A DNA stretch of 64,000 bases from assembly GCA_038915165.1 (NCBI GenBank), contig JBCLDE010000001.1, positions 6,234 through 70,233 on the forward strand, read 5' to 3'. Shown here one piece after another: positions 38,468-63,574 of the stretch. Every line of letters begins with the position of its first letter. The stretch's first letter is position 1. The position numbers and the translations under genes are program-made. Below the pieces are notes generated by a model. It ran no database searches and was not told where the DNA came from. It was given only the letters and a program-made list of their open reading frames with translations. Source of the DNA: Candidatus Limnocylindrales bacterium (GTDB lineage: Bacteria > Chloroflexota > Limnocylindria > Limnocylindrales > CSP1-4).

Positions 38468-38468
<1 letters not shown>

Positions 38469-39397: not shown

Positions 39398-41980
39398 CTA
39401 CTCGGGATGGATCGGTGCGATGGCGGCTCCATGCCCGTTGCCATTGGCGGGGACGCCCCCGATGGTCGGCGGGAGCATGGGCAGCATCCGCGTCGGGTCG
39501 ATGATGCGTCCTTCCGCGGCCGCTGTGGACGCCCAATCGCGCTCGCGCCGGATGTAGGTGACTTCAGTCTCGCGGTCGATCGCCGCGATGGCCATCAGAT
39601 CGATCATCGGGTTCGCGCGGCTCGTGTCGGCGAGCTCGATGTCCGGACCATGGCGCAGTGCGTCGTATGGGCAGGCGTCCACGCAGATACCGCACAGGAT
39701 ACAGCGGCTCTCGTCGACCTCGAACTTCTGGAGGATGCGCGGCTTGAGCATCAGGGCGCCGGTCGGGCAGGTCTCGGCGCACCGTCCGCACGAGACGCAC
39801 GGGGTGTCGTTGAGGCTCATGTCCAGCGGCGTCGTGACGAGCGTGTCGAAGCCGATCCGCATGAAGTCGTAACAGGCCGCCCCGACGACCTCGGCGCACA
39901 CGGTCGCGCAGCGGCCGCAGTCGATGCAGCGTGACGGCTCGCGCAGGATGAAGGCGTGCGAATCGTCCCGGATGTAGTCGTGGTTGGTGCCGGTGAAGCG
40001 GTTCTCGGTGACGCTCCGGTAGCCGGCCCCGGCGTTGTGCTGCGGTTCGAGGGTCTGGAGCGTGGTCCCGTACTCGATCCCAAGGCGACGCAGGTCGCAG
40101 AAGCCGATCGCCTCGCAGGTGCACTGCAGGCAGCGGGTCGACTCGGCGACCGCTTCCTCGCGGGTATATGGCAGTTCGTACTCGATAAAGCTGTTTCTGC
40201 GTTCCTCCGCCTCCAGCACCTTCATCCGGTAGCGCGGTTCCTTGGCCTCCATGGTGAACGGTACGATGGACAGGAACTCGGGCTGCGGCTCGGCCAGTGT
40301 CTGGCGGGTCCGGATGGCGCTCAGGTCGAGGCCCTTCATGTGGGCGTCGACAGCGTACGCCGCGCGGCGGCCCTCGGCGCAGGCCTGCACGACGGTCGCG
40401 GACCCGATCCGCACGTCGCCGGCCCCGAACACGCCCGGGCGGCCGGTCTCGAAGGTCACCGCGTCCGCCCTGAGCCGGTGCAGTATCGTCTTCTCCGGTC
40501 CCTCGTTGCCGGGCTGTCCCAGCCAGTCGAGCTCCGGCCCCTGGCCGATGGCCAGCAGGACACGGTCGCATGGGATGATGAATTCGGTGCCAGGGGCCGG
40601 TTCGGGCCGGCGGCGGCCGGACGCATCCGGTGCACCCAGGACCATCCGGATGAACTCGACGCCCGTGACGTTGCGGGCTTCGTCGGCGATGACACGGACC
40701 GGACCGGCCTGGAAGATGGCGGTGACGCCCTCCTCGATCGCCTCGTGGACCTCGTTGGAAGCCGGCATGTCCTTCATGTCGCGGCGATAGACCAGCGTTA
40801 CTGCCTTGGCGCCCTGGCGGACGGAGATCCGCGAGCAGTCCATGGAGGTGAACCCACCACCGATGACCACGACCCGCTTGCCGGCGTGGTCCGGGTAGGG
40901 CAGGCCGAGGGTCGCCGTGCGCAGGTACTCCAGGCCCTCGATACATTCGGGCGCGTCGTCGTCCGGGATGCCCAGCTTGTTCGTGTCGTAGCAGCCGATC
41001 GCAATGAGGACGGAATCGAAGCCCTGGAAGGTCAGGTCATCCAGCGTGAAGTCGCGGCCGAAGCCGGTATTGCAGACGATCTTGCCGCCGAGACGCGTGA
41101 TCGATTCGTACTCCGCTTCGAGGACTTCGACCTTCGGCAGGCGGTATTGCGGGATGCCGTACCGGAGCATGCCGCCCGGCGCCGGGTCGCGCTCGAAGAC
41201 CGTCACATCGTGGCCGGCCAGGAGCAGGTAGAACGCGGCGCTCATGCCGGCCGGCCCCGAGCCGATGATCGCGGCTCGTCGTCCCGAGGGTGCCTGGCGC
41301 TCGAACGGCAGTGGTGGGTCCACCCCGTCGTCGAGCATCGACTTCAGGACCTGGTCGCCGGCGTAGCGGTGGCTGTCGCGGATGGCGATCGCCTCGTCGA
41401 CCTCGTCGCGTCGGCAGTGATCCTCACACGGCGCCGGGCAGACCCGCCCGAGGATGCTCGGGAACGGGATCGTCCGCTTGAAGATCCGCGCCGACTCGCG
41501 CCAATCGGCCTGTGCGTTGGCCTTCAGGAAGCCCGGGATGTCGATGGAGCTGGGGCACTTGTTCTGGCAGGGCGGCAGGCAATAGGCGTTGTGGTCGGAG
41601 AAGATCAGCTCCAGGTTCGTCCGGCGCAGGCGGCGCACCTCTTCGGTCTGGGTCTGGACCTTCATCTCCGGCGCGCACACGCGCGCGCACGAGATCGGCG
41701 GGTGCTCCTCGCCCTCGACCTCGACGACACACATCCGGCAGGCCCCGAAGCCGGGCAGCTTCGGCTCGTAGCACAGGGTCGGGATCTCGATGCCGTTGGC
41801 GCGGCACACCTCGAGGATCGTCTGGCCCTCGAACCCTTCGAGGATGCGGCCGTCGACCTCGATGCGGATGCGCGGGGTCGACTGCGGGCGCTGCGGCGCC
41901 TGAGCCTCCAGCAGTCGCTCGGCGAGCGACTGCTGGTCCAGTGCGGGGCGGCTTTGGGGGCGCGTGATCAGGTCGGCCAT
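39398..41980 (-). CDS. 860-aa Fe-S flavoprotein fusion: NuoG-type N-terminal [2Fe-2S] domain, GltD/NfnB-type NAD(P)H-FAD module, NuoG-type [4Fe-4S] region, NuoI-like 2x[4Fe-4S] tail
   Basis: The 2Fe-2S region is RIRIEVDGRILEGFEGQTILEVCRANGIEIPTLCYEPKLPGFGACRMCVVEV. The GltD part reads CPSSIDIPGFL...GRVCPAPCEDHC, AAIIGSGPAGMS and VVVIGGGFTSMD. The 4Fe-4S region is SRCIDCGRCATVCAEV...CVSCGRCAETCPTGAL. The tail CILCGICVDACPYDALRHGPDIELAD resembles the NuoI C-terminus. Confidence 0.8.
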   Translation of the reverse strand: MADLITRPQSRPALDQQSLAERLLEAQAPQRPQSTPRIRIEVDGRILEGFEGQTILEVCRANGIEIPTLCYEPKLPGFGACRMCVVEVEGEEHPPISCARVCAPEMKVQTQTEEVRRLRRTNLELIFSDHNAYCLPPCQNKCPSSIDIPGFLKANAQADWRESARIFKRTIPFPSILGRVCPAPCEDHCRRDEVDEAIAIRDSHRYAGDQVLKSMLDDGVDPPLPFERQAPSGRRAAIIGSGPAGMSAAFYLLLAGHDVTVFERDPAPGGMLRYGIPQYRLPKVEVLEAEYESITRLGGKIVCNTGFGRDFTLDDLTFQGFDSVLIAIGCYDTNKLGIPDDDAPECIEGLEYLRTATLGLPYPDHAGKRVVVIGGGFTSMDCSRISVRQGAKAVTLVYRRDMKDMPASNEVHEAIEEGVTAIFQAGPVRVIADEARNVTGVEFIRMVLGAPDASGRRRPEPAPGTEFIIPCDRVLLAIGQGPELDWLGQPGNEGPEKTILHRLRADAVTFETGRPGVFGAGDVRIGSATVVQACAEGRRAAYAVDAHMKGLDLSAIRTRQTLAEPQPEFLSIVPFTMEAKEPRYRMKVLEAEERRNSFIEYELPYTREEAVAESTRCLQCTCEAIGFCDLRRLGIEYGTTLQTLEPQHNAGAGYRSVTENRFTGTNHDYIRDDSHAFILREPSRCIDCGRCATVCAEVVGAACYDFMRIGFDTLVTTPLDMSLNDTPCVSCGRCAETCPTGALMLKPRILQKFEVDESRCILCGICVDACPYDALRHGPDIELADTSRANPMIDLMAIAAIDRETEVTYIRRERDWASTAAAEGRIIDPTRMLPMLPPTIGGVPANGNGHGAAIAPIHPE

Positions 41981-42016
41981 GGTCGCCTTAGTGCCGCGCC
42001 GACATCGGCCACAAAC

Positions 42017-43852
42017 TCACCGGGATCCTCCTGCCACACCGGGGGTGCCGGCCAGCTGCGCGTCGCGGTACGACTCCTTGTAGAGCCGGCCGTCACTCGA
42101 GATCTCCTGGAGCTCGAACCGCTCCATCGTAATGGCGTCGAACGGGCAGCGCTTGACGCACAGCGCGCAGCGGATGCAGCTCTCCTCGTCGATGATCATC
42201 GCCCCGCCGTTGTCCCAGCCGTAGGCCTCCTCGAGCTCGGGCAGCGGCCCCTCGGATTTGAGCTGGTTGATGTCGACCAGGTGGATGACGCCGACGGGGC
42301 AGACATCGGCACAGGCGCCGCACAGGACGCAGCGGAACGGGTCGAACCAGATGTTGTAATTGCACATGAGACAGCGGATCGACTCGGCGACGGCGGCATT
42401 GGCGTCGTAGCCAAGCTCAACCGGCGTGTTGAAGTTGACGACCGGTTCGGTCGATGGCATCCGCGCGGTCACCGGCAGCATCGGGATGTGCTGGCGCGGC
42501 AGGACGTCGTAGAACTCGGGCATGTCGTGGCGCCACGAGCTGGTGATCTTGACGTTGGCGCTGACCGAGACGTCGGTCCGGCCGGCCAGGTAGCGATCGA
42601 TGGCGTAGGCGCACTTCTTGCCGTGGCCGGCCGCCTCGACCAGGGTCGTCGGGCCGGTCACGAAGTCGCCGCAGGCGAAGACGCCCCGGACGTTGGAGGC
42701 GTACGTGGCGGGGTCCACCTTGACCCGGCCGCGGTTGATCTGGAACTTCGCCTCGATCGGCAGGAAGGTCAGGTCGGCCGCCTGTGAGACGGCGGGGATG
42801 ACGGTCTTGGCCGGGATGACGAACTCGGAGCCCGCGATCGGCACCGGGGAACGGCGGCCGGACGCGTCCGGCTCACCCAACCGGTTACGGATGAACTTGA
42901 CGCCGCTGACCTTGCCGTCCTCGCCCAGGATCTCGATCGGGCTGGCCAGGAACTCCAGGCGCACGCCTTCACGCTCGGTCTCGCCCAGCTCCTCTTCGTC
43001 GACGACGAGCTCCGAGCGGGTGCGCCGGTAGACGATCGAGACGCGCTCGGCGCCGTGGCGCAGGCTGGTGCGCGAGCAGTCCATCGCGGTGTAGCCGCCA
43101 CCGATGACCACGATGTCGGTCCCGACCTCCAGGGGCTGGCCGAGGTTGGCCTGCTTCATGAAATCGACGCCGTACTGGACACCCTCGAGATCGGCGCCGG
43201 GGATGTCCAGGGCCACCGCGTCCATGGCGCCGGCGGTGATCGCGATCGCGTCGAAGTCCCGCTGGAGTTGCTCGAACGTGATGTCCACCCCGATCGTCGT
43301 GTCATACACGAACCGGACGCCCAGCCGCTCGATCAGGCGCACGTCGTTCTCGATCGCCTCACGCGGCAGGCGGAAGGCCGGCACGCCGATGAGCATCGTC
43401 CCGCCACCGTACGGCAGGCTGTCGAAGACGGTGCACTGGTAGCCCGCGGTGGCGAGCTCGCGGGCGACGCTCAGACCGGCCGGTCCGGCACCGACGATCG
43501 CCACGCGCTCGTCGCGCGGCGTGATCTGGGGCATCACGTCCGGGATGCCCGACGCCTCATGCCATTCGACGAGGAAGCGCTTCATCGCCCGGATCGCCAG
43601 TGGCCGATCGATGTCGCCACGACGACAGGCCCGCTCGCACGGCGCCGAGCAGACATACGAACACATCGCGGCGACCGGGTTCGTCTCGCGCGCCAGGATG
43701 TAGCCCTCCTCGAACCGGCCTTCGGCGGCAAGGTTGAGGTAGCCACGGCAATTCGTCCCGACCGGGCACGCTTCCTGGCACTCGATGTTGCACTGGAGCC
43801 AGGAGGCGTCGACGGGCTGGACGAGGAATTCCTGGGGCTGCTCGATGGCCAA
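42017..43852 (-). CDS. 611-aa GltD/NfnB-type NAD(P)H oxidoreductase with C-terminal 2x[4Fe-4S] ferredoxin domain (TTG start)
   Basis: The product reads CQEACPVGTNC...CSYVCSAPCERACRR, VAIVGAGPAGLS, IVVIGGGYTAMD and FACGDF. The C-terminus carries CVLCGACADVCPVGVI and CIRCALCVKRCPFDAI. Confidence 0.8.
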   Translation of the reverse strand: MAIEQPQEFLVQPVDASWLQCNIECQEACPVGTNCRGYLNLAAEGRFEEGYILARETNPVAAMCSYVCSAPCERACRRGDIDRPLAIRAMKRFLVEWHEASGIPDVMPQITPRDERVAIVGAGPAGLSVARELATAGYQCTVFDSLPYGGGTMLIGVPAFRLPREAIENDVRLIERLGVRFVYDTTIGVDITFEQLQRDFDAIAITAGAMDAVALDIPGADLEGVQYGVDFMKQANLGQPLEVGTDIVVIGGGYTAMDCSRTSLRHGAERVSIVYRRTRSELVVDEEELGETEREGVRLEFLASPIEILGEDGKVSGVKFIRNRLGEPDASGRRSPVPIAGSEFVIPAKTVIPAVSQAADLTFLPIEAKFQINRGRVKVDPATYASNVRGVFACGDFVTGPTTLVEAAGHGKKCAYAIDRYLAGRTDVSVSANVKITSSWRHDMPEFYDVLPRQHIPMLPVTARMPSTEPVVNFNTPVELGYDANAAVAESIRCLMCNYNIWFDPFRCVLCGACADVCPVGVIHLVDINQLKSEGPLPELEEAYGWDNGGAMIIDEESCIRCALCVKRCPFDAITMERFELQEISSDGRLYKESYRDAQLAGTPGVAGGSR

Positions 43853-43909
43853 GCGGGGCGTGCCTTTCCCTGGTTCTCGGGGCTCGGGTGCGAACGGACG
43901 ATCGGCGCA

Positions 43910-43945
43910 GCGGCCGATGCGGCCGATGCGGCCGATGCGCCGAAT
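43910..43945. repeat. 9-bp tandem repeat gcggccgat x3 perfect + 1 degenerate, in the divergent promoter region between the nuo-like operon and sufB
   Basis: Read directly from the sequence: units at 43910, 43919 and 43928, and a degenerate one at 43937. The array lies 58-93 nt upstream of the TTG start at 43852. Confidence 0.9.
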
Positions 43946-44212
43946 CTACCATCCGTCCCGTCAGGACGTGCACGGCAGGGGGATCCGGCGGGCATTGCGG
44001 GCGAGAGGAGAAGTCAGCAGACGCCCCGTCGGAGGCAGTTCCGGATGGACCAGCCGAGCCGGGTGATCGTCATGAAGGTCGGCGTTCACCTAGCCTGGAT
44101 CCACCGGTAGCAGGGACTGATTCGTCGCTGGCCTGGGTGGCGGGCTCACTGTCGAACCGCGTCCGGTTTCGCGCAGCTTTGCCCCTCTCTATCTCTCATC
44201 CCGACCCGTCGC

Positions 44213-44241
44213 TTGACACTTCGGCGCGTAATCCCGACAAT
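44213..44241 (+). promoter_or_regulatory. putative sigma70-type promoter for sufB (TTGACA-17 nt-GACAAT)
   Basis: TTGACA lies at 44213..44218 and GACAAT at 44236..44241, in a locally AT-richer spacer about 80 nt upstream of the sufB ATG. This is sequence inspection only. Confidence 0.3.
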
Positions 44242-44320
44242 CTGACTCGGAATTAGAAACAAGCCTCGACCAGGCCGGGCCGCGGCGCCTCGGGTGCCGC
44301 TACACAGCACGGGAGATCTC

Positions 44321-45733
44321 ATGACAGCGACCACAGCAACCCGCGAGATCGTCACCGACCAGCGCGACCAGTTCGCCTTCCACGACGACATCACCTACCT
44401 CGTCGAGACGAAACGCGGCTTGACGCGCGAGACGGTCGAGGAGATCAGCGGCTTCAAGAACGAGCCGGACTGGATGCTCCAGTTCCGCCTGCGCGCCTAT
44501 GAGCACTTCCTCAAGCGCCCGATGCCGGCGTGGGGCGGCGACCTGTCGAAGATCGACTTCGGCAACATCGTCTACTACCGCAAGCCGTCGGCGCGCGAAG
44601 AGAAGTCGTGGGACGACGTGCCGGAAAAGATCAAGGCCACCTTCGAGCGGCTGGGCATCCCCGAGGCGGAGCGCAAGTTCCTGGCCGGCGTGGGCGCGCA
44701 GTACGACAGCGAGGTCGTCTATCACTCCGTCAAGGAAGAACTGACCAAGATCGGCGTCGTGTTCATGGGCACGGATCAGGCGCTCATCGACTACCCGGAG
44801 CTCTTCCGCAAGTACTTCGCCACGGTCGTCCCGGCGGAGGACAACAAGTTCGCGGCGCTCAACGCCGCGGTCTGGTCGGGCGGCTCGTTCGTCTATGTGC
44901 CGAAGGGTGTCGAGGTCCCGCTCCCGCTGCAAGCCTACTTCCGCATCAACGGCGAGAACACCGGCCAGTTCGAGCGGACGCTGATCATCGTCGACGAGGG
45001 CGCCAAGGTCCACTACATCGAGGGCTGCACCGCGCCGGTCTATGCGACCGAGTCGCTCCATGTCGCCGTCGTCGAAGTCGTCGCGCTGGCCGGCTCCAAG
45101 GTCCGCTACACGACGATCCAGAACTGGTCGAACGACGTCTACAACCTGGTCACCAAGCGCGCCCACGCCCACGCCAACAGCAACGTGGAGTGGATCGACG
45201 CGAATACCGGCTCGCGCCTCACCATGAAGTACCCGGCCATCTACCTGCGCGGCGAGGGCGCCACGGCCGACATCATCAGCGTCGCCGTCGCGGGCAAGGG
45301 CCAGCATCAGGACACCGGGGCCAAGGCTGTCCACCTGGCACCCAACACCCGCTCGCGGATCGTGAGCAAGTCCGTCTCCAAGGATGGCGGCCGGTCGACC
45401 TACCGCGGCTCGCTCAAGGTGTTGCCGGGGGCCACGAATGTCGTCGCCAGCGTGCGTTGCGACGCGCTCATGCTCGACGACATCAGCCGCAGCGACACCT
45501 ACCCGTACATCGACATCCAGGAAGACGACACGACGATGACCCACGAGGCCACGGTCGGCAAGGTCAGCGCCGACCAGGTCTTCTACCTGATGAGTCGCGG
45601 CCTGACGGAGAACGAGGCGACGAACCTCATCGTCCAGGGCTTCCTGGAGGTCTTCACGAAGGAACTGCCGATGGAGTACGCCATCGAGTTCAACCGGCTC
45701 GTGAAGCTCGAGATGGAGGGGTCGCTCGGATGA
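44321..45733 (+). CDS. sufB: Fe-S cluster assembly protein SufB
   Basis: The product reads ...[32 protein letters not shown]...EGCTAPVY...[17 protein letters not shown]...[17 protein letters not shown]...[21 protein letters not shown]. Confidence 0.9.
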
Positions 45734-46056
45734 CGACTGAGGCGGCGGACGTCGCCGACGCCTCGCACTCGTCGCCGAAACCCGGACCCCGTCCGGTCCG
45801 GCGGGCGCCCACCGACCTCTTCCGGTAGGCGCCTACCGACCTCCCGTTCTCCTTCGCCGACCGGGCGCTCATCGAGCGTCTCGGGACGGAACGCGGTGAG
45901 CCCGCCTGGTTGCGTGCCGAGCGCACGGCCGCCGCTGACGCGTTCGAGGCGTTGCCCCTTGAGCCGAACCGTCTCTACACGACCTATCTCGACCTGCGTC
46001 TCGTGGACGTGATGACGGTCGTGCCCGCCGCACGCGAGTTGCGGCGAACTACGTAG
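45730..46056 (+). pseudogene. sufD: truncated sufD remnant (about 100 codons, internal TAG, then sequence changes character)
   Basis: The ATG overlaps the sufB stop (ATGA). An in-frame TAG lies at 45826..45828 between two copies of a 15-bp repeat (gcgcccaccgacctc / gcgcctaccgacctc, 24 bp apart). The SufD-like N-terminus then reads FSFADRALIERLGTERGEPAWLRAERTAAADAFEALPLEPNRLYTTYLDL and ends at TAG 46054..46056. No sufC/S/U follows. Confidence 0.6.
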
Positions 46057-46167
46057 CCTGTGCAACTTTCGCTTGGAGCCGAGGTTCAGCTGGGCCGTTA
46101 CCGCGAGCGGTACTCTGACCCTACGAGAAGCCGCTTATGAGGAACCGATTCAAGGGGAGACAGGGAG

Positions 46168-46509
46168 ATGCAGACACTAACGCAGATGAAGTGCGTCGCG
46201 TGCCGCAAGGACGCACCGACCGTGACGGATGCCGAGATCGCCGAATTTCATTGCCAAGTCTCTGGTTGGGACATCGTTGAGCTCGATGGACTCAAACGCC
46301 TGAGACGCGTCTTTTCAGTGGACGATTTTGCGCAGGCGTTGGAATTCACGAAGAAGGTTGGCGCGCTTGCAGAGGCAGAGGGGCATCACCCTGCGCTGCT
46401 GACCGAATGGGGTAGGACGACGGTCACATGGTGGACGCACAAAATCAAGGGCCTGCATCGCAACGATTTCATCATGGCGGCGAAAACGGACGAGCTGTAT
46501 CAGCCATGA
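46168..46509 (+). CDS. pterin-4-alpha-carbinolamine dehydratase (PCD/DCoH)
   Basis: The 113-aa product reads ...[62 protein letters not shown]-type RBS lies upstream. The gene sits in a visibly lower-GC patch. Confidence 0.85.
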
Positions 46510-46682
46510 CTCGATCCGTCAGACGGGGCCCGGCCTCGATGCCGGGGAGACGGCGAGGTCGTGACTTCTGGTTGCAAGGAGCACAACCTGGAGTTTACGC
46601 ATCCCACACGGTCTGGCTACCCAGCGAGAAGACAGGCGCGACGTTCCCCACATCGTGCGTGACGAGCCTGGACGACCTGTAG

Positions 46683-47882
46683 CTAGCCGGCTCTGAACCG
46701 TGCGGCCTCGTCCGACCCGCGCGTCGCGTCGCCCGCGCTGTAGGAGTGCGCTCCGGCTCCGGCGAGCTTGCCGCCGTCGACGATCAGGTACTCCTCGCGG
46801 ATCGGGCGGTTGTCAAACCAGCACTCCAGGATCTCCCGGACACCGGCCGCGTAGCGAGCCTGCGCCGAGAGCGTGGTGCCGGACGTGTGCGGGGTCATCG
46901 CGTGATTGGGCATCGTCCGCCAGGGATGATCCTGTGGCGCGGGCTGGGGGAACCAGACATCGCCGGCATAGCCCGCCAGCTGGCCGCTCTCGAGCGCCCG
47001 CACCACGGCGTCGCGGTCGCAGATCTTGCCGCGCGCCGTGTTGACGAGGTAGGCGCCGCGCTTCATCTGCCCGATAAGATCGTCATCGAAGAGGTGCTCG
47101 GTCTCGGGATGCAGCGGCGTGTTGATCGTCACGACGTCACACACACGCACGAGCGACTCGACGTCCGGGTGATACGTGACGTCGAGGGCCTGCTCGAGGG
47201 CGGGAACACGGTGGCGGTCAGTGTAATGCAGCCCGACCTCGAACGGCTTCAGCCGTCGCAGTACCGCGGAGCCGATCCGCCCGGCCCCGACGGTGCCAAC
47301 CTGCATCCCCTCCAGGTCGTAGGCGCGGGACACGCAGTCCGCGATATGCCAGCCGCCGGCGACGACCCGCTGGTAGGACGGGATGTAGTTGCGGACGAGC
47401 GACAGGATCAGCATCACGACGTGCTCGGAGACGCTGATGCTGTTCGAGTACGTCACCTCGGCGACGGTGATGCCCCGGTCGATCGCGGCCTGGAGATCGA
47501 CGTGGTCCGAGCCGATCCCGGCCGTCACTGCGAGCTTCAGCCGCGGCGCCTTGGCGATCCGCTCCGCCGTCAGGTAGGCGGGCCAGAACGGCTGCGAGAT
47601 CACGATCTCCGCCTCGGGCAGCTCGCGCTCGAAGACGGAGTCCGGCCCGTCCTTGTCAGAGGTCACGATCAGCCGGTGCCCGCGCTCCTCGAGGAACCGC
47701 CGCAGCCCGAGCTCGCCCGACACGCTCCCGAGCAGCTCGCCCGGCGTGAAGTCGATGCGCTCCGGCGAGGGCGTGGCCTGACCATCGGGGTAGCGCTCGA
47801 TCCTCGGGATCGCGTCACGGGCGTACGATGTCGGGTAGCCTGCCACGGGGTCGTCGTAGAGAATGCACAGGATAGTAGCCAT
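46683..47882 (-). CDS. fdh: NAD-dependent formate dehydrogenase
   Basis: The product is nearly colinear with the Pseudomonas sp. 101 / Mycobacterium vaccae FDH sequences as I remember them: ILCILYDDPVAGYPTSYARD, TPGELLGSVSGELGLR, VTSDKDGPDSVFERELPEAEIVISQPFWPAYLTAERIAKA, TAGIGSDHVDLQAAIDRGITVAEVTYSNSISVSEHVVM, GTVGAGRIG, GDVWFPQPAPQDHPWR. Confidence 0.9.
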   Translation of the reverse strand: MATILCILYDDPVAGYPTSYARDAIPRIERYPDGQATPSPERIDFTPGELLGSVSGELGLRRFLEERGHRLIVTSDKDGPDSVFERELPEAEIVISQPFWPAYLTAERIAKAPRLKLAVTAGIGSDHVDLQAAIDRGITVAEVTYSNSISVSEHVVMLILSLVRNYIPSYQRVVAGGWHIADCVSRAYDLEGMQVGTVGAGRIGSAVLRRLKPFEVGLHYTDRHRVPALEQALDVTYHPDVESLVRVCDVVTINTPLHPETEHLFDDDLIGQMKRGAYLVNTARGKICDRDAVVRALESGQLAGYAGDVWFPQPAPQDHPWRTMPNHAMTPHTSGTTLSAQARYAAGVREILECWFDNRPIREEYLIVDGGKLAGAGAHSYSAGDATRGSDEAARFRAG

Positions 47883-48102
47883 CTGGATGCCCCTTGCCTA
47901 TCACCGAGTCGAACGCGATCGCCATCATACGCCGCTGTTGCCGTCTGGGCCGGCGGATGCAGGCGACGCACACGAATTCGTGGGTAGGCATGGCGGGGAC
48001 CCTGATGACCGGTGTGATGCCGCGCAGGCGACGTCGGCCAGAATATGAGCTAGCGGCTCGAGCGCCCACCCCATCACGCGAGCCCACGGAGGTCAAGGCA
48101 TC

Positions 48103-49500: not shown

Positions 49501-49558
49501 CAGCGAGTCCGAGATCAGGATGGTAGCGGTCGGCACCGTGCAGCGATAGGCTGGTGCC

Positions 49559-55072: not shown

Positions 55073-55111
55073 CGTCGATCGGTGTACGGTGGAACCGCAC
55101 GGAGGTGTCGC

Positions 55112-55378: not shown

Positions 55379-55540
55379 AGGCGGCCGGCGCGCCGGGATG
55401 CGTCTCACGATCGCGCTGGGCGGCGATGCAAAGCCCGGTCCCGGCGTCGCAGGAACGACCTGGGGGTCGTAGTTCTCCTGTGCCCCGGTGAGCGACGCGA
55501 ACTGCCCGGGGCCAGGACCACGCGGCCATCGTCGAGCGGA

Positions 55541-56248: not shown

Positions 56249-56423
56249 TGCCGTGACTCCAGCTCTACTCTACGATTCTGTTGCGAGCGCAACCAAGGTG
56301 AGGCAGGGGCCCGGGCTGGTCAAACCGCGTGGATGCTTCTTGATGCTCTGTCGGGTGGATGCTCGCACATCCACGCGCCGAGCGGACAAGTCGTGCGCGA
56401 TGGGGCCGATGGGGCTACCGTAA

Positions 56424-59400
56424 ATGGCGACCGTGAGCAATTCCATGACTGGTTCGAACGAGGCCCGCGACGCGGTCCGCGCCGTGCCGATTCCGATCCA
56501 GGGGATTGGCGCGCGCCTCGTCGCCAACATGACCCAGAGCCTCACCGTCCCCACCGCAACCTCGTTCCGCGACATGCCGGTCGATGTCATGGTTGCGCTG
56601 CGGCGCCAACTCAACGCGGCCTTGGCCCCGTTCCGCCTGTCGTTCACCCACCTGATCGCGTATGCCATCGCCCAGGCGGGAGCAGTCCACCCGACGCTCG
56701 CTGCCCACTTCGTGGAGATCGACGGGCGGCCGCATCGGGTCGACGCGAGCGCGATCAATCTCGGGCTGGCCGTGGACGTCCGGACCCGCGACGGTCAGCC
56801 ATTTCTGGTCGTCCCTGTGGTCCGGGGTGCCGACGAGCTCGACTTCGCGGCCTTCGTGGCCGCCTACGACGATCTGGTGGGGCGGGCAAGAGACAGCCGC
56901 CTCTCGGCCGACGACCTCGTGGGCGCCGGCATCACGCTCACCAACCCGGGGACGGTGGGCACGACCGCGTCCATCCCTCGCCTGATGCCGGGCCAGGGCG
57001 CGATCGTCGCCACCGGTGCGATCCACAAGGTCGCCGGCGGGAGCGTGATGACGGTCAGCAGCACCTACGACCATCGGATCATCCAGGGTGCCGAATCGGG
57101 CCGCTTCCTGGCCACGGTGGAAGAACTGCTCGGAGGCGCGGACGACTTCTACGGCTACGTCGCGGATTGCCTGGAGATCCCGCGGTCGGTGGTCTCAGTG
57201 ACGACCACGACGGTCGCGCCCGCGACCGTCGGCGTGGCGTCTCCCGCCGCGACCAGCGGCCTGGCCGAAATCGCCGCCGGTGTGGCCCTCGTCCACTCCT
57301 ATCGCCAATTCGGCCACCGGGCCGCCGCTCTCGACCCTCTCGGCAGCACCCCGCCCGGCGAGCCGGCCCTGGAACCGGAGGCCTGGGGCCTCACTCCGGA
57401 GGAGCTGGCGTGTGTCCCGGCCGACCTGCTGCGTGTCGACCTGCCGGGAGCCAACCTGGCGGATGTCCTGCCGGAGCTGCGTCGCACCTACTGCGGAACC
57501 ATCGCCTACGAGATCGAGCACATCAACAGCCACGACGAGCGGACGTGGCTGCGGAAGACGATCGAGACGGGAACGCATCGGGTCCCCCTTACCGCGGACG
57601 ACAAGCGGAAACTTCTCACCCGGCTGACGGCCGTGGAGGCCTTCGAGCACTTTCTCCAGCGTGCGTACCTGGGCCAGAAGCGGTTCTCGATCGAGGGCCT
57701 CGATGTCCTCGTCCCGATGCTGCACCAGATCATCGAGCTGGTCGGACGGGCCGGCGCCAGGACGGTCAAGCTCGGAATGGCCCATCGGGGTCGCCTGAAC
57801 GTCCTCGTCCAGGTGGTGGGCGTCCCCGACGCCGTGATCCTCGACGAGTTCGAGCGCAGCCACTCAACGGCCGAGGCCGACCTCCCGCCCGAGGGTGAGA
57901 CGAGCGACGTCAAGTACCACCGCGGCGCGGACGGCGTCCATCAGACCGCGAGTGGCCCGATCCTGGTGACGCTCTCGTCCAACCCGAGCCACCTCGAGGC
58001 AGTCGACCCCGTGGTCGAGGGCCGGGCACGCGCCGAGCAAAGCGATCGCAAGGGACCTACGGTGAGCCGGGACGTCCGCCTCGCGGTGCCCGTGCTGATC
58101 CATGGAGACGCCGGGTTTGCTGCGCAGGGCGTGGTCGCCGAGACGTTTAACCTCGCGCGTCTCGCCGGCTACACGACCGGCGGGACGACCCACCTCATCG
58201 CCGACAATCAGCTCGGCTTCACGGTCGAGCCGAGTGACGGCCGCTCGACCGACTACGCCAGTGATCTTGCCAAGGGCTTCGACGTGCCGATCGTCCACGT
58301 CAACGCCGACGATCCGGAGGCCTGCCTGGCGGCGGTAGAGCTCGCCGTCGCCTACCGCGAACGGTTTCATGGCGACTTCGTCATCCACGTCGTGGGCTAC
58401 CGTCGCCACGGCCACAACGAGGAGGACGAGCCGGCCTATACACAACCGCTGATGTACGCTCGGGTCGCCGAGCACCCGACGGTCCGCGAGCTCTACCTGC
58501 GGCGCCTGGTCGAGGAGGGCACCCTCGAGCTCAGCGCCGGAGAGGCGATGCTCAGTGCTGCGGAGGCACGCCTGGCGGAGATCCAGGAGTCGGTGGCGAG
58601 CAGGGTGACGGACGGCGAGCTGGAGGCCGTCGCGGAACCTGGGGCGACCGAGCCCCGGCCGGCGGCGAATCTGGTCGGTCCGCGACGCAGGACCCGCGGC
58701 TCGACGGAGGTTCCCGCAACGGCGGTCCGCGCAAGCCGCCTGCGAACCATCAACGACGAGCTCCTCCGCTGGCCCGAGGACTTCACCGTTCATCCCAAGT
58801 TGATCCGCCAGCTCGACCGGCGGCGCGCGGCGCTCGGCCCGGACGGCAGGATCCTGTGGGCGCAGGCGGAAGCCCTCGCGCTGGGGTCACTCCTGCTCGA
58901 CGGCACGCCGATTCGCCTGACCGGCCAGGACACCGAACGAGGGACGTTCAGCCAGCGCCATCTCGTGCTCCACGATGCCGGGGACGGGCGGCAGTTCACG
59001 CCGATCCAGCATCTGTCCGGCGCTCGGGCCTCATTCGAGCTGCACAACAGCCCCCTCTCGGAGCTGGCCTGCCTCGGGTTCGAGTACGGCTATGCCGTGG
59101 AGGCGCCAGAGACCCTCGTCCTCTGGGAGGCGCAGTACGGGGACTTTGCCAACGGCGGCGAGGTCGTGATCGACCAGTTCATCATCGCGGGCCTAGCGAA
59201 GTGGGGCGAGACCTCTCGGCTGACCCTCCTGCTACCGCACGGCTACGAGGGCCAAGGACCGGAGCACTCGAGCGCGCGTCTTGAGCGCTACCTGTCCCTA
59301 GGAGCAGAGGACAACATTCGGGTCGCGAACTGCACGACGCCCGCCCAGTACTTTCACCTGCTGCGCGACCAGGGCCTCCGCCCGATCGTCCGACCGCTGG

Positions 59401-59957
59401 TGCTGATGACGCCCAAGAGCCTGCTGAGGCTTCCGGCCGCGACCTCCAGCGTCGACGAGTTGACCGCCGGCCGGTTCGAGGCCGTCCTCGACGATCCGGA
59501 CCGCGCGGCATCACGCAGCGACGTCCGCCGGCTTGTGCTGTGCAGCGGCCGTCTCTACTACGACCTGCTGCTCTCGCCGATGCGCGCAGAGGCACACGAC
59601 GTGGCCATCGGTCGAGTCGAGCTTCTCTATCCGTTTCCCGGCGAGGAGGTGCGGCGGCTGGTCGCCCGCTACCCGTCCCTCGAGACGGTGGTCTGGGCCC
59701 AGGAGGAGCCGCGCAACATGGGTGCCCGCAAGTTCGTGCTGCCCAAGCTTCTCGAACTTGTCCCCGGGAACGTCCCGATCGTCGACGTCTCGCGACCCGA
59801 GCGATCGAGCCCGGCCGAGGGGTACCACGCCGCGCACCGGACCCAGCAGCAATCGATCGTCGAGGAGGCATTCGGAGAGCTGTCCCTCCGGTCGCCGGCC
59901 CGCGGCCACGGGGGTCGCGGCCGTGCACGGACGTCCCGAAAGGCATCGGTGGCATGA
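56424..59957 (+). CDS. kgd: Kgd/OdhA-type 2-oxoglutarate dehydrogenase: E2 acyltransferase catalytic domain fused to E1o
   Basis: The N-terminal ~230 aa read LTVPTATSFRDMPV...LTNPGTVGTTASIPRLMPGQGAIVATG...SSTYDHRIIQGAESGRFL (E2 catalytic core). E1o motifs follow: RFSIEGLD, MAHRGRLNVL, GDVKYH-like SDVKYHRG, HGDAGFAAQGVV, HNEEDEP, FEYGY and [15 protein letters not shown]. Confidence 0.9.
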   Translation: MATVSNSMTGSNEARDAVRAVPIPIQGIGARLVANMTQSLTVPTATSFRDMPVDVMVALRRQLNAALAPFRLSFTHLIAYAIAQAGAVHPTLAAHFVEIDGRPHRVDASAINLGLAVDVRTRDGQPFLVVPVVRGADELDFAAFVAAYDDLVGRARDSRLSADDLVGAGITLTNPGTVGTTASIPRLMPGQGAIVATGAIHKVAGGSVMTVSSTYDHRIIQGAESGRFLATVEELLGGADDFYGYVADCLEIPRSVVSVTTTTVAPATVGVASPAATSGLAEIAAGVALVHSYRQFGHRAAALDPLGSTPPGEPALEPEAWGLTPEELACVPADLLRVDLPGANLADVLPELRRTYCGTIAYEIEHINSHDERTWLRKTIETGTHRVPLTADDKRKLLTRLTAVEAFEHFLQRAYLGQKRFSIEGLDVLVPMLHQIIELVGRAGARTVKLGMAHRGRLNVLVQVVGVPDAVILDEFERSHSTAEADLPPEGETSDVKYHRGADGVHQTASGPILVTLSSNPSHLEAVDPVVEGRARAEQSDRKGPTVSRDVRLAVPVLIHGDAGFAAQGVVAETFNLARLAGYTTGGTTHLIADNQLGFTVEPSDGRSTDYASDLAKGFDVPIVHVNADDPEACLAAVELAVAYRERFHGDFVIHVVGYRRHGHNEEDEPAYTQPLMYARVAEHPTVRELYLRRLVEEGTLELSAGEAMLSAAEARLAEIQESVASRVTDGELEAVAEPGATEPRPAANLVGPRRRTRGSTEVPATAVRASRLRTINDELLRWPEDFTVHPKLIRQLDRRRAALGPDGRILWAQAEALALGSLLLDGTPIRLTGQDTERGTFSQRHLVLHDAGDGRQFTPIQHLSGARASFELHNSPLSELACLGFEYGYAVEAPETLVLWEAQYGDFANGGEVVIDQFIIAGLAKWGETSRLTLLLPHGYEGQGPEHSSARLERYLSLGAEDNIRVANCTTPAQYFHLLRDQGLRPIVRPLVLMTPKSLLRLPAATSSVDELTAGRFEAVLDDPDRAASRSDVRRLVLCSGRLYYDLLLSPMRAEAHDVAIGRVELLYPFPGEEVRRLVARYPSLETVVWAQEEPRNMGARKFVLPKLLELVPGNVPIVDVSRPERSSPAEGYHAAHRTQQQSIVEEAFGELSLRSPARGHGGRGRARTSRKASVA

Positions 59958-60125
59958 TCGAGACCCGTCACGATCGCAACGTTCACGACATCCACAGTTC
60001 GCCTCCACCTTAGTATGCGGGCACCGGCCCGCGCGCACGAAGGGCTGCTCACGCCCGCTTGGCACAGGTGATCGGCGACGCCGAGGGACGCGGCGGAGCG
60101 GCTGCGCGCGGTCGTTCGGCTGGCC

Positions 60126-60449
60126 GTGCCGGACGCGATCGAACGAGTGCGGTCAGGCTGGCACCTGATCGGCTACGAGGTTCCCGCTGGGCGCCGTTCG
60201 AGGTACTTCGCCTTCGTCGCGCCGGAGGTCGAGCACGTCCACCTCGGGTTCGAGTACGGAATCTGGATGTCCGATCCCGACGGTCTGCTCCGGGGCGCGC
60301 ACCTGGGCCTCCGCAAGGTGCGCTTCGTGACGTACATGCCGGGCGATCCCATCCCGGAGCCGGCGCTCGTCGAGTTCACTCGCGAAGCCGCGTGGCTGGC
60401 CACGATGTCGCGCGACGAGCATCTGGTGCTCGAGCTGGACCGCGACTGA
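60126..60449 (+). CDS. DUF1801-like protein, apparently lacking its N-terminal ~30 residues
   Basis: The product reads ...AVPDAIERVRSGWHLIGYEV...FAFVAPEVEHVHLGFEYGIWMSDPDGLLRGAHLGLRKVRFV. The frame opens at 60072 with homologous-looking ...AAERLRAVVRLA, but the first start codon is GTG 60126. Confidence 0.45.
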   Translation: MPDAIERVRSGWHLIGYEVPAGRRSRYFAFVAPEVEHVHLGFEYGIWMSDPDGLLRGAHLGLRKVRFVTYMPGDPIPEPALVEFTREAAWLATMSRDEHLVLELDRD

Positions 60450-60653
60450 AGGCCGAGCGCCATGCTGTCGCGACGAATGACCAGGTTGATCGAAATCCGC
60501 TCGAATCGCCTTCGTCCGGGCTGGCGGTCCGAGTTCGAGCGGCACAGGGACTGGAAGCGTACGACGGGCTCTCAAGCCCTCTGCCGTCGAGACGGCAGAG
60601 GGCTGGCGCGACGAGACCACCCTATCCTGCTACTCGTCGCGTAGACTCCGGCC

Positions 60654-61640
60654 ATGGCTGACGGCGACCGCTCTGGGCTGCATACGGGGATGGCAGGGCT
60701 TCCGAGTGGCGCACAAGCGGAGATCGAGTCACTCCGTGCAGTTCGTAGCCCAACTCGACGCGTAGTGGCCCCTGCACTCGAAGACATCCTGTACGAGCCG
60801 ATTCCAGTGCTCGATCACGGGTTCATACGCGTGATCGACTACATGGGCGACGACTCCTCTGTCGTCCAAGCCGCCAGAGTCTCCTATGGACGTGGGACGA
60901 CGAAGCAGCGCACCGATGCCGGGTTGATTGGCTACTTGATGCGCCATCGGCACACGTCGCCGTTCGAGATGTGCGAGATCAAGCTGCACGTGAAGCTGCC
61001 CATCTTCGTCGCCCGGCAGTGGATTCGCCACAGGACTGCGAGTGTGAACGAGTACTCGGGCCGATACTCCGTTCTCGACCGGGAATTCTACGTTCCGCGC
61101 ATTGGCGACCTGGCTCCGCAATCGCAGACAGCCCGGCAGGGTCGTGCGGGAGTCTTGCCTCCCGAACGGGCGTCGAGAGTCCTCGACCTGCTAAGGCGCA
61201 ACGCTGAAGCGGCATACGAAGGATATGAGACGCTGCTCGCGGACCCCTCGGAGACGCCTGATGGCTTAGGGCTTGCCCGCGAGCTGGCACGCATGAACTT
61301 GACCCTGAGTTACTACACTCAGTGGTACTGGAAGATTGACCTCCACAACCTTCTGCACTTCGTCGAGGTGAGGGCGTCTCCGGACGCACAGCTGGAAATC
61401 CGCGCCTACGCGTTGGTGTTGCTAGAGCTCCTGAGGGCCTGGGTCCCGCAGACGGCCGAGGCATTTCGCATTCACAGGCTCGAGGGTGTCAGCCTCTCCT
61501 CCAAGGCTATCCGCGTGATCCGCGCCGCCGTGCCGACGTCCAATCTCGTGAGGCCCGAAGACATGAGTGACGGCGAATGGCGCGAGCTACTCGCCGTCCT
61601 CGATCGAAATGAGGCCGTGGACCCTGATGCAAGTCGGTAG
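60654..61640 (+). CDS. thyX: FAD-dependent thymidylate synthase ThyX (start 60654 or ATG 60690)
   Basis: LDHGFIRVIDYMGDD, HRHTSPFEMCEIKLHVKLPIFVARQWIRHRTASVNEYSGRYS (the RHRxxSxxxxSxR motif) and WKIDLHNLLHFVEVR are present. GC is visibly lower than in the surroundings. Confidence 0.9.
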   Translation: MADGDRSGLHTGMAGLPSGAQAEIESLRAVRSPTRRVVAPALEDILYEPIPVLDHGFIRVIDYMGDDSSVVQAARVSYGRGTTKQRTDAGLIGYLMRHRHTSPFEMCEIKLHVKLPIFVARQWIRHRTASVNEYSGRYSVLDREFYVPRIGDLAPQSQTARQGRAGVLPPERASRVLDLLRRNAEAAYEGYETLLADPSETPDGLGLARELARMNLTLSYYTQWYWKIDLHNLLHFVEVRASPDAQLEIRAYALVLLELLRAWVPQTAEAFRIHRLEGVSLSSKAIRVIRAAVPTSNLVRPEDMSDGEWRELLAVLDRNEAVDPDASR

Positions 61641-61979
61641 AGCTTTATCGAAAGGGACCAAACGGGCACCCGCGAAACCCGAAGTGCTCGTGCACCGATC
61701 AGGTGGCCGTCGGAGCAGGCTACGGGCGTATGCCGCTGGTTTCACCCGCCCGCGAACAACACCACCCACCTAGAGCACCCATGTCCGGCCAGATCCCGGC
61801 CTCGACGACGTGGATGAGGGCCCTACGCAGGGCAGCGGCGGCTGCCGCGAACTCGTCGAGGGCGGTCAGGCACCTGCCGCACGTACGACGCAGGTCTCCA
61901 TCGTCCGATCGCCGACGGCGCGAAACTCGGCCCGCGGCCAGACGAGCATCCGCCGTCTCAGTCACACACGATTCACCTG

Positions 61980-62017
61980 TTGGTTATTTCCGAGCGCGGT
62001 AGTATGATTTAGCGATG
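61980..62017 (+). promoter_or_regulatory. putative promoter TTGGTT-17-TATGAT ending 6 nt before the sufT ATG (likely leaderless transcript)
   Basis: TTGGTT lies at 61980..61985, TATGAT at 62003..62008 and the ATG at 62015. There is no room for an SD. Confidence 0.35.
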
Positions 62018-62350
62018 ATCAACGAGACAAGCATCGCCACCCCTGACGTCGCGCCGCCCGCCTTCAACGCCGAGCGCCGTGCCACGGAGCTCGCCATCCT
62101 CGACGCCCTGCGCTCCGTCGTGGACCCGGAGATCGGGATGAATGTCGTGGAACTGGCGCTCATCAAGCAGATCATCCTCGCCCCGGACTCGACCGAGGTG
62201 AGGATGATCCTGACCACGCCCTTCTGTCCGTACGCCGCCTCGATCCTCGCCCAGGTCAAGGAGCAGACCGAGACCGTGGTCGAGCACGACGTCACGGTCA
62301 CCCTGCTGGCCGAGCCTTGGGACCCCAAGGAAGCCGGCATAATGTGGTGA
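62015..62350 (+). CDS. sufT: SufT/DUF59 (MIP18-family) Fe-S assembly protein
   Basis: The product reads ILDALRSVVDPEIGMNVVELALIKQI...VRMILTTPFCPYAASILAQVKE. Confidence 0.8.
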   Translation: MINETSIATPDVAPPAFNAERRATELAILDALRSVVDPEIGMNVVELALIKQIILAPDSTEVRMILTTPFCPYAASILAQVKEQTETVVEHDVTVTLLAEPWDPKEAGIMW

Positions 62351-62426
62351 GCGCGACGCGCACCTCCCGAGCCACCACGCCGAGCCGATGGGCTGGTATC
62401 GCCACCGTCGGCGAGGGGATCGAAGG

Positions 62427-62480
62427 GTAACCCGGGATTTAAGCGGGTTACTTGTCAAAACTCGTTACCGCACGTACGAT
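62427..62480 (+). promoter_or_regulatory. 8-bp inverted repeat (GTAACCCG N9 CGGGTTAC) abutting a TTGTCA-17-TACGAT promoter upstream of the A-type carrier gene
   Basis: The arms lie at 62427..62434 and 62444..62451. The -35 element is at 62452..62457 and the -10 at 62475..62480. A second palindrome GGTGAC...GTCACC (62483..62505) follows, along with a strong RBS GAAGGAGG at 62541..62548. Confidence 0.35.
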
Positions 62481-62557
62481 ATGGTGACTGGCCGGAATCG
62501 TCACCATTACCCGGACGCCATCACGGAACTTGACCCTTCAGAAGGAGGCCGCGGCAG

Positions 62558-62956
62558 ATGCTTGAAGTCCAGTTGATCGAGGTCCAGCCGACCACGGTGC
62601 TCAATATGACCGACGCCGCCACCCTGAAGCTCCGTGAGATCGTGGCCCAAGGGACCAACCCAAACATCGGCCTGCGCGTCCACATCACCAGCGGCGGCTG
62701 CTCTGGCCACAAGTACGAGATGATGCTCGAGGACGCCCCAACCGCCCAGGACAAGGTCATCAAGGCCAACGGCGTCACCGTCTATGTCGATGGCAAGAGC
62801 ATCCACCTGCTGAAGGGCGCCGAGATCGATTACGTCGATACGCTTATGGGCGCCGGCTTCACGGTCAACAACCCCAATGCCGTCGCGGCCTGCGGCTGCG
62901 GCACCAGCTTTCGCACCGCCGACGATGCCGGCTCAGCGAAAAGCTGCTCCAACTAG
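62558..62956 (+). CDS. A-type Fe-S carrier (IscA/SufA/ErpA, HesB family)
   Basis: The product reads LRVHITSGGCSGHKYEMML...IDYVDTLMGAGFTVNNPNAVAACGCGTSF. The AGGAGG RBS 9 nt upstream supports ATG 62558. Confidence 0.85.
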   Translation: MLEVQLIEVQPTTVLNMTDAATLKLREIVAQGTNPNIGLRVHITSGGCSGHKYEMMLEDAPTAQDKVIKANGVTVYVDGKSIHLLKGAEIDYVDTLMGAGFTVNNPNAVAACGCGTSFRTADDAGSAKSCSN

Positions 62957-63085
62957 ATCGGGAACCGTGGAGCGGTCGGTGGCTGGGTTCGGTGGCTTCA
63001 CGGGCTCCGACGGTGGAACTACCGCTCTTTCCGCTGCACACCGTGCTCTGTCCAGAGACGGTGAGTGCGCAGGGACAGGACTCGA

Positions 63086-63373
63086 ATGACCTATGTGATC
63101 GCCGAGGCGTGCATCGACGTGCTCGACCAGTCGTGCGTCTCGGTCTGTCCGGTTGACTGCATCCATTTCGACGAAGGTACGGATCGCAAGCTGTTCATCG
63201 ATCCGAACGAGTGCATCGACTGCGGAGCCTGTGAGCCAGAATGTCCGGTGAATGCGATCTTCACCGAGGAGTCTCTGCCGCCGGAATGGGCGAACTACAC
63301 AGCCATCGACGCCGTCTGGTTTACCGACAAGGCGGCTGCCCGAGCCGAGGTTGACGCGCTCATGCCGGTCTGA
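63086..63373 (+). CDS. fdxA: 7Fe-type ferredoxin ([3Fe-4S][4Fe-4S], FdxA-like)
   Basis: The product reads MTYVIAEACIDVLDQSCVSVCPVDCIH...IDPNECIDCGACEPECPVNAIF. Confidence 0.85.
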   Translation: MTYVIAEACIDVLDQSCVSVCPVDCIHFDEGTDRKLFIDPNECIDCGACEPECPVNAIFTEESLPPEWANYTAIDAVWFTDKAAARAEVDALMPV

Positions 63374-63488
63374 CCGCCCGTCGGGCCTCGTCGAGCGGTC
63401 CCTCGCGGGCGGCGAGGCTCTGGTGGAAGCGATACGACAAGCCCGGAACTCGAGCAGGTGGCAGCGGTGGGCGATCACGTCGACGACC

Positions 63489-63574
63489 CGGCCATCGACC
63501 TCGATGCGGATGCGCGGAGTCCACTGCGGGGCGGCTTTGGGGGCGGGTGATCAGGTCCGGCCACGGTCGCCTTA
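63489..63574 (-). pseudogene. degenerate second copy of the first ~45 codons (plus leader) of the 860-aa nuoG-like fusion gene, directly downstream of nuoF-like
   Basis: 63489..63530 matches 41847..41888 (42 nt, 3 mismatches). 63531..63574 matches 41948..41990 (2 mismatches, 1-nt insertion). This copy lacks the 59 nt at 41889..41947, and ATG is changed to GTG. The shared block ends at TAA, which here is the nuoF-like stop codon (63572..63574). Confidence 0.8.

Follow-up and report, generated by a model that had tools for sequence, protein, structure and literature searches.

Why does nuoF lie 21.46 kilobases (kb) from the gene that should follow it in a complex I operon, with a damaged copy of that gene's beginning directly behind the nuoF stop codon? 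The question is raised by a metagenome-assembled genome of Candidatus Limnocylindrales, Chloroflexota (assembly GCA_038915165.1), from which we analysed a 64,000-nucleotide (nt) stretch of the forward strand, contig JBCLDE010000001.1 positions 6,234-70,233, here called the window. The source names of protein homologues likewise point to Chloroflexota, Candidatus Limnocylindrales. The separated gene encodes an 860-amino acid (aa) fusion protein and is followed by nuoJ to nuoN. We consider it highly probable that 21.46 kb (42013..63471) were inserted between nuoF and the fusion gene in the ancestor of a two-species clade of soil or freshwater Chloroflexota, with duplication of a target of ~180 nt, and that the distal repeat copy is a decaying fragment that marks the old nuoF-fusion junction. 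All genes of the split operon, and the repeat, are read on the minus strand. In the direction of reading, the features are:

63572..64000, minus strand: 3' part of nuoF, which the window cuts (PF10589 NADH_4Fe-4S, E=1e-20)
63595..63477, minus strand: distal repeat copy, a dead fragment directly after the intact nuoF
63571..63565, minus strand: distal spacer GGCGACC, then GTG in place of ATG at 63564..63562
63477..63571, minus strand: distal pseudogene fragment, with what is left of fusion-gene codons 1-15 and 35-49
41833..42012, minus strand: proximal repeat copy, with the functional 5' end of the fusion gene, codons 1-49
42012..41991, minus strand: decayed nuoF tail of the proximal copy, GTGGCCGATGTCGGCGCGGCAC
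41990..41988, minus strand: former nuoF stop TAA of the proximal copy
41987..41981, minus strand: spacer GGCGACC of the proximal copy, then the fusion-gene ATG at 41980
39398..41980, minus strand: 860-aa fusion gene, with a NuoG-type N-terminal [2Fe-2S] domain, a GltD-type FAD/NAD(P)H module and a NuoI-like 2x[4Fe-4S] domain (Pfam)
33386..39444, minus strand: nuoJ, nuoK, nuoL, nuoM and nuoN (Pfam, gene calls in L001-L005 and ancestral downstream context)

To compare gene orders we used the nuoF C-terminus as query and took one genome per species, which gave 80 loci of Limnocylindria relatives. Loci of relatives are labelled L (among them L001-L005, L008, L086-L088, L169, L170, L172 and L173) and metagenome sequencing runs X1-X4. 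The nuoF of the window is orthologous to those of the 80 relatives, at 75-89% identity. In 79 of them the fusion gene begins 10-40 nt past nuoF and nuoJ-N come next. The sole exception is L008, where, as in the window, ferredoxin, sufA and sufT come after nuoF. L172 (P0003; fusion protein 91% identical), the closest outgroup, has nuoF and then the fusion gene. In L001-L005, whose fusion proteins are 93-98% identical to that of the window, the order is sufB, a 611-aa flavoprotein gene, the fusion gene and nuoJ onwards. The comparison with close relatives that the original prediction had proposed thus upholds its ancestral order of nuoF followed by the fusion gene. Because 79 of the 80 relatives and L172 are unsplit, we interpret the arrangement of the window, in which the two genes no longer form one cluster, as derived and confined to a clade of two species-level lineages, one comprising the window, L004, L005 and L173 and the other L001-L003 and L008.

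The fusion gene fills the nuoG to nuoI slot of this operon. Its protein has more than 7900 homologues, the best 120 of them at 81-98% identity. Across ~80 species the Limnocylindria order is nuoA-B-C/D-H-E-F-[fusion]-J-K-L-M-N (L019:4095-13036, L173:11581-17845, window 33386-41980), with nuoH between nuoD and nuoE and with separate nuoG and nuoI genes absent from the complex I operon. In L173, nuoF is a complete 441-aa gene with nuoE-H-D-C-B-A upstream in the ancestral context; nuoC and nuoD are separate there, and the outgroup operon reads nuoA, B, (C)D, H, E, F, fusion, J-N. A search for literature on Limnocylindria complex I gave nothing relevant.

The trace of the old junction is a direct repeat. 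About 180 nt are present twice in the same orientation, comprising the last ~24 nt of nuoF, the TAA stop, the 7-nt spacer and the first ~49 codons of the fusion gene. A repeat search paired 41936-41974 with 63519-63557 at 95% identity and 41830-41888 with 63472-63530 at 85%. BLASTN of the two regions, likewise proposed beforehand, returned 52/56 identities with 1 gap (E=1e-18) and 50/59 identities (E=3e-14), with no further significant match between 800 nt of the distal and 3 kb of the proximal region. Both searches agree with the claim that direct repeats bracket about 21.5 kb, the distal copy lying right after the nuoF stop, and the open reading frame (ORF) that ends in the TAA at 63574..63572 carries PF10589, as expected if this is the nuoF stop. 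Two of the proposed limits need correction. The shared block had been said to end exactly at the TAA; it continues ~24 nt into nuoF, with 42012..41991 matching the nuoF tail. The repeat had been given a distal end at 63489, and the similarity extends to 63477.

The two copies have had different fates. TAAGGCGACC stands before the fusion-gene ATG (41980), and the same letters stand at the nuoF stop in the distal copy, where GGCGACC and GTGGCCGGACCTGATCACCCGCCCCCAAAGCCGCCCCGCAGTGGAC-TCCGCGCATCCGCATCGAGGTCGATGGCCGGGTCGTCGACGT follow. From there on the distal copy is broken, and its lesions are those predicted: GTG for ATG, one additional G and a 59-nt deletion, equivalent to exactly 41889..41947, with TGCGGG repeats at its bounds. 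It is moreover truncated at codon ~49. At the nucleotide level it is homologous to, and collinear with, the beginning of the fusion gene; this, together with the disabling lesions, identifies it as a pseudogene remnant of that gene. The remnant in L008 is less decayed, retaining the ATG and the 59 nt, with deletions of 1 nt and 3 nt and collinearity over ~150 nt; it ends at the same ...GTCGTCGACGT as the remnant in the window. In the proximal copy it is the nuoF tail that has decayed: GTGGCCGATGTCGGCGCGGCAC matches the nuoF tails of L047 and L064 at 16/16 positions plus a 3-nt insertion, at the same position relative to the stop. A transposase target duplication is an exact direct repeat of 2-14 base pairs (bp) that abuts the element ends, and 4-8 bp long for the insertion sequence (IS) family IS21. 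The repeat described here is ~180 nt long and has no IS ends at either junction.

Before the history of the locus is discussed, we should consider whether the junctions are real. With a metagenome-assembled genome as the source and a short repeat, one might suspect a chimeric contig or, by coincidence, a leader or ribosome-binding motif common to unrelated genes. Arguing against a chimera, seven independent contigs of six other assemblies show the junctions, as do unitigs of unrelated metagenome runs. L173, an independent assembly of the same species, matches the window at 99.6% identity over 12 kb and shows its distal junction again, down to the 59-nt deletion. L008, of the second species, carries a longer version of it (nuoF-fusion'-IstB'-fdx). 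The proximal junction reads 611-GTGAGTTT-nuoF'-TAA-fusion in L001-L005, the breakpoints are identical in both species, and unitigs cross the joint between the 611-aa gene and the fusion gene (X1 record 6, X3 record 17). No sequencing run holds more than 0.32 of the window's sampled words, and the Logan unitigs, at 100-300 nt, support the junctions and cannot phase them. Coincidence is countered by the E-values of 1e-18 and 3e-14, and a common leader motif by similarity that runs past the leader over ~49 coding codons and, in L008, by a copy collinear over ~150 nt. The original prediction had named chimeric junctions and leader-only similarity as the findings that would overturn it, and the independent contigs and the coding similarity contradict both. 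We give such explanations almost no chance and, on these sequences, regard them as excluded.

Real junctions could still have arisen through relocation of one operon half by translocation, by inversion, or by a large tandem duplication with reciprocal loss, with nothing inserted. Direct repeats at both junctions are what the joint of a tandem duplication followed by deletion would leave, and a pseudogene fragment of kgd inside the intervening segment shows that some duplication and decay took place. Both outer flanks of the operon speak against it. Upstream of nuoA in L173 are a Methyltransf_28 gene (398 aa) and a 356-aa gene, found in the same place in 61 and 56 outgroup loci. Downstream of nuoN are a sortase-like gene and a trehalose phosphatase gene, in the same place in 31 and 23 outgroup loci. 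Because both flanks are ancestral, neither operon half appears to have moved, and the 21.46 kb would have been inserted between them. In addition, a tandem duplication would call for a duplicated stretch of more than 55 kb, with the dnaA/dnaN origin region (window 3.5-7 kb) inside it, and for its later deletion. We therefore consider relocation very improbable. The original prediction had posed insertion at the junction and duplication of the junction as alternatives, and both seem to be true, with 21.46 kb gained and ~180 nt doubled.

In our reconstruction, the ancestral state would be one operon, nuoA-B-C-D-H-E-F-[NuoG'-GltD-NuoI' fusion]-J-K-L-M-N, which took up 21.46 kb at the boundary of nuoF and the fusion gene in an ancestor that both species share. 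The target, from nuoF position -24 to fusion codon ~49, would have been doubled, one copy on each side of the insert. The left copy would leave nuoF whole, and the right copy would leave the fusion gene whole together with its ribosome-binding spacer. The rearrangement probably survived because overlapping breakpoints of this kind keep both neighbouring genes intact. The redundant halves would then erode, the proximal nuoF tail gaining insertions and deletions and the distal fragment losing its start codon and reading frame.

What was inserted is, judged by its gene content, a mosaic of at least three sources: an IS21 fragment, a block of ~19 kb with genes of iron-sulphur (Fe-S) cluster assembly and the tricarboxylic acid (TCA) cycle, and a module of ~2 kb around the 611-aa gene. 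Pfam scans agree with the original prediction that the segment holds the 611-aa GltD gene, Fe-S and TCA genes and remnants. From the nuoF side, the parts are:

63383..63471 (ends ±10 nt), minus strand: internal fragment of an IS21-family istB, helper ATPase C-terminus ..HRCHLLEFR..SYRFHQSLAAREG..
63086..63373, plus strand: gene for a 95-aa 2x[4Fe-4S]/7Fe-type ferredoxin (PF00037, PF12838), the first intact gene of the insert, convergent with nuoF
43976..63085, both strands: Fe-S assembly/TCA block (Pfam scans), with sufA, sufT-like, thyX, DUF1801, kgd, sdhA-like, aconitase-family, glyoxalase-like, pterin-4a and sufB genes on the plus strand and DoxX, NifU-like and 2-hydroxyacid/formate dehydrogenase-like genes on the minus strand
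43853..43975, minus strand: native upstream region of the 611-aa gene, with a conserved GGATGGTAGATTC (extended -10-like), GTGCAC at the -35 position and the ribosome-binding site GGGAAAGG
42017..43852, minus strand: gene for a 611-aa GltD-like NAD(P)H/FAD flavoprotein with a 2x[4Fe-4S] tail (Pfam)
42013..42020, minus strand: first 8 nt of a cytochrome b6 gene (cytB), GTGAGTTT, its GTG overlapping the TGA of the 611-aa gene (42019..42017); right breakpoint of the module

The origin of the 611-aa gene is the clearest of the three. Its protein is only 32-39% identical to the fusion protein and is not encoded by a nuo gene. Its orthologues, at 84-92% identity, are the flavoproteins whose genes open the Limnocylindria Rieske/cytochrome b6 operons. 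In all other Limnocylindria sampled the gene is the first of such an operon. In L086-L088 it is followed by cytochrome b6, subunit IV and Rieske genes and has a GTGA overlap with cytB. Among 80 metagenome loci in which its neighbours were counted, cytB follows in 77 (44 also reach the Rieske gene) and the other three stop at the contig end. The fusion gene follows it in none of L086-L088 and the 80 metagenome loci. Upstream, a PIG-L-family gene is present in L086-L088 and in 58 of the 80. The canonical order with cytB is found in L170; in L169 a truncated upstream gene overlaps cytB. In the window, cytB is reduced to 8 nt after the 611-aa gene and the b6 operon that it would head is missing. 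The octamer GTGAGTTT is identical to the cytB start in L087 and L088, with divergence directly after it, and unitigs of X2 and X3 leave the window exactly at 42013 into canonical cytB. On the other side, alignment with 12 outgroup upstream regions places the beginning of homology ~105-120 nt before the start codon. The homologous stretch thus begins ~120 nt ahead of the start codon and ceases 8 nt beyond the stop codon, which defines a module of ~2 kb, putative promoter plus gene, from the head of the b6 operon.

Two other derivations of this junction were rejected. The C-terminal tail of the 611-aa protein (..AGTPGVAGGxR, then the stop) does not derive from nuoF, as it is native and conserved in L086-L088. 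Nor is the whole 36-nt spacer before the fusion gene a cytB remnant: the first 8 nt are cytB and the next 22 nt are nuoF tail. Within the native leader of the 611-aa gene there is a 9-nt array (CATCGGCCG x3, window 43910-43945). Since outgroups hold a short GTCGGC..GCCGAT palindrome-like element there, we read the array as a clade-specific expansion of a conserved leader element.

The cytochrome b6 operon of the clade itself was not found: a search with cytB homologues, and look-ups of P0323 and P0353, yielded only other assemblies outside the clade. One could suppose that the 611-aa gene reached its place ahead of the distal complex I genes by a move and not as a copy, and that selection has kept it there, a proposal that we consider rather improbable. 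If true, its protein would work with, or be co-regulated with, the GltD-bearing complex I subunit, perhaps as a GltD-type pair that feeds or drains NAD(P)H. The clade's b6 complex would then have no flavoprotein gene in cis, and the locus would represent a natural subunit swap between complexes I and III.

At the other end of the insert, next to the fusion remnant, is the IS21 relic. The counterpart in L008 is ~290 nt long, frameshifted and corresponds to the C-terminal third of IstB, of which the window retains ~89 nt. The L008 fragment matches PF01695 IstB_IS21 (E=3.7e-8, profile positions 187-224 of 238) and the NCBIfam model IS21_help_AAA (NF038214, E=8e-10), with profile scores under the full-length cut-offs, as expected of a fragment. 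A tblastn search places 63383..63471 of the window on the L008 IstB peptide, and tblastx of the L008 junction segment gave high-G+C noise only. In metagenome X4, unitigs run from 63471 into a longer, L008-like IstB, one of them diverging at 63383, and depth over 63400-63429 is ~3x that of the flank, as expected for a repeated element. We found no further IS21-like sequence in the window or the 173 loci. IS21 ends as the junctions themselves were considered and rejected, because the IstB piece is internal and other IS21 sequence was not found. A 23-nt tandem duplication (GCGATACGACAAGCCCAGAACTA) lies within the relic in L173 (L173:11425-11447) and is absent from the window; thus, the scar is still changing at the strain level.

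The Fe-S/TCA block makes up most of the insert. The ferredoxin gene at its nuoF side has 95% nucleotide identity to that of L008 and is called as a 95-aa gene in L173. In the outgroup loci, the 10 kb around nuoF and around the 611-aa gene contained none of the block genes. Exact look-ups of the window ferredoxin (102 and 95 aa) and SufA (132 aa) gave no match, and that of SufT matched. Other features of the block stand by themselves. At 50372-51033 there is a kgd C-terminal pseudogene with Transket_pyr and OxoGdeHyase_C pieces in two frames. It is 70-85% identical to the intact kgd sequence 8.5 kb away (58872-59642) and contains a 20-nt internal tandem repeat (50879-50940). Directly after it, an aconitase-family ORF of 616 aa (window 51150-53000) begins at PF00330 profile position 71 and has a partial Aconitase_C; it may be a truncated or a divergent family member. 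An ATP-grasp_N fragment (window 49075-49500; L008:9050-9439) is 12.5 kb from sufT in the window and 1.3 kb in L008, so that the thyX-kgd-sdhA-aconitase segment is placed differently in the two species. Beyond the insert, jag, yidC, dnaA and dnaN are at window 196-7177, ~26 kb from nuoN, and the rearranged region is therefore close to oriC.

The state of the remnants bears on the age of the event. They differ from the working copies by 13-16%, against 3% in this stretch between the working copies of one species and the other; thus, the event predates the split of the two species. The species of the window later lost the 59 nt between TGCGGG repeats and ~190 nt of adjoining IstB sequence. A derived CCCCCAAAGCC is common to the remnant in the window and all working copies, and the L008 remnant has the outgroup-like CGACAGCC. 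These two sites hint, weakly, at gene conversion between the direct repeats in the species of the window.

How the separated halves are now expressed can be suggested from the layout. nuoA-F would form a transcription unit of their own that ends in the scar. The fusion gene and nuoJ-N would be transcribed with the 611-aa gene, and the captured b6 promoter presumably drives the distal nuo genes. The fusion gene retains its original spacer, AAGGCGACC-ATG. From the cytB GTG to the old nuoF TAA there is a relic frame of 10 codons (GTG AGT TTG TGG CCG ATG TCG GCG CGG CAC TAA; window 41988-42020, minus strand), the TAA of which lies 7 nt before the fusion ATG. Both species retain the frame, L001-L003 with a single W>G change, and ribosomes might use it to pass on from the 611-aa gene to the fusion gene.

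Several observations count against the history proposed here, or against parts of it. The match between the proximal spacer and the nuoF tail is short, and 18 of 1000 shuffles score equally (p ~0.02). The IstB relic lacks both IS ends, istA, inverted repeats and a short target duplication; because both ends are missing, neither of its borders is a transposition joint. The relic may have come later, as a passenger in dispensable DNA, and not have been the agent. No source locus for the Fe-S/TCA block was found in outgroups, and the insert may have been built in several steps, not one. With regard to expression, a scan of 62900-63700 gave no terminator, and a consensus promoter scan did not call the putative 611 promoter.

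If we accept the insertion, three routes would fit its topology, and the present analysis does not separate them. One could begin with a slippage event that duplicated ~180 nt in tandem over the nuoF/fusion boundary, with later insertions at the joint trimmed by deletions. Such a duplication would create a dispensable joint between two intact genes, and all the inserted DNA begins exactly where the left copy stops and ends exactly where the right one starts. The insert is a mosaic of unrelated sources, and small changes continue, including the 59-nt deletion, the ~190-nt loss and the 23-nt tandem duplication in L173. Counter to this, a relative with the small tandem duplication alone was not found among the 80 genomes and L172, and several independent insertions would be needed at one spot. 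We regard this route as a tentative possibility. Alternatively, a single replicative template switch (like fork stalling and template switching, FoSTeS, or microhomology-mediated break-induced replication, MMBIR) could have left the fusion gene at codon ~49, copied the IS21-adjacent block and then the 611 module, and returned ~180 nt behind its point of departure. This would explain sharp mosaic breakpoints within genes (cytB nt 8, nuoF -24, fusion codon ~49) and a flanking duplication far longer than that of any transposase. Counting against it, the route predicts, at least initially, source copies, namely a second 611-aa gene at the b6 operon and a second Fe-S/TCA block, and junction microhomology is not evident after the decay. 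To our knowledge, template-switch insertions of 20 kb are rarely documented in bacteria, and we think this course unlikely. Equally doubtful is an IS21-bounded translocatable unit or cointegrate-type structure that brought the block, with or without the 611 module. In both species the IstB fragment is exactly between the fusion remnant and the block, and its sequence is multi-copy in metagenome X4. Yet the fragment is internal and is accompanied by neither an IS end nor istA, an inverted repeat or a target duplication of 4-8 bp, and no second IS remnant was found, be it at the far end of the insert, in the rest of the window or in the loci. We also know of no 180-nt target duplications made by IS21.

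Whichever route was taken, the insertion of 21.46 kb with a doubled target offers a nucleotide-resolved case of an essential 13-gene respiratory operon that was split without loss of function, with the orphaned half presumably gaining a promoter from the head of another operon. There is a consequence for annotation, as it would be wrong to describe the locus as a nuoJKLMN operon that lacks peripheral-arm genes, which are found 21.5 kb away. It also indicates that the 611-aa flavoprotein gene is separable from cytochrome b6, which bears on the role of that flavoprotein.

Looking across known systems, each component of this locus has a familiar counterpart. IS21 elements consist of an istA transposase and an istB helper ATPase gene, and the relic matches the C-terminal third of IstB (PF01695, IS21_help_AAA); unlike an element, it is an internal piece of 89 nt in the window or ~290 nt in L008. 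As in Rieske/cytochrome b6 operons, the 611-aa gene has its native upstream region in front of it and shares GTGA with the start of cytB, but a 36-nt relic spacer and the fusion gene follow instead of cytB, subunit IV, Rieske and cytochrome c genes. Complex I genes are split over two or more loci in other bacteria as well, and here too there would be two transcription units, with the break between the NADH-input module and the distal genes. In contrast to those, this split is very recent and confined to two species, an outgroup at 91% identity is unsplit, the scar is still readable, and the distal unit gained the head of another respiratory operon.

Operon disruption by insertion, with flanking duplication and pseudogene remnants, has been described in reductive or IS-rich bacterial genomes. 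The present case is similar in that a gene fragment at the old junction records the ancestral order, an IS fragment is found in the scar, and redundant parts decay via frameshift, start-codon loss and microhomology deletions. It differs in that the duplication of ~180 nt far exceeds a transposase target duplication and straddles a gene boundary with both essential neighbours intact, and in that the insert carries housekeeping genes rather than mobile-element cargo. In other words, this is a recent and well-preserved insertion scar with capture of the head of another operon, an event of a known kind and part of ordinary genome evolution.

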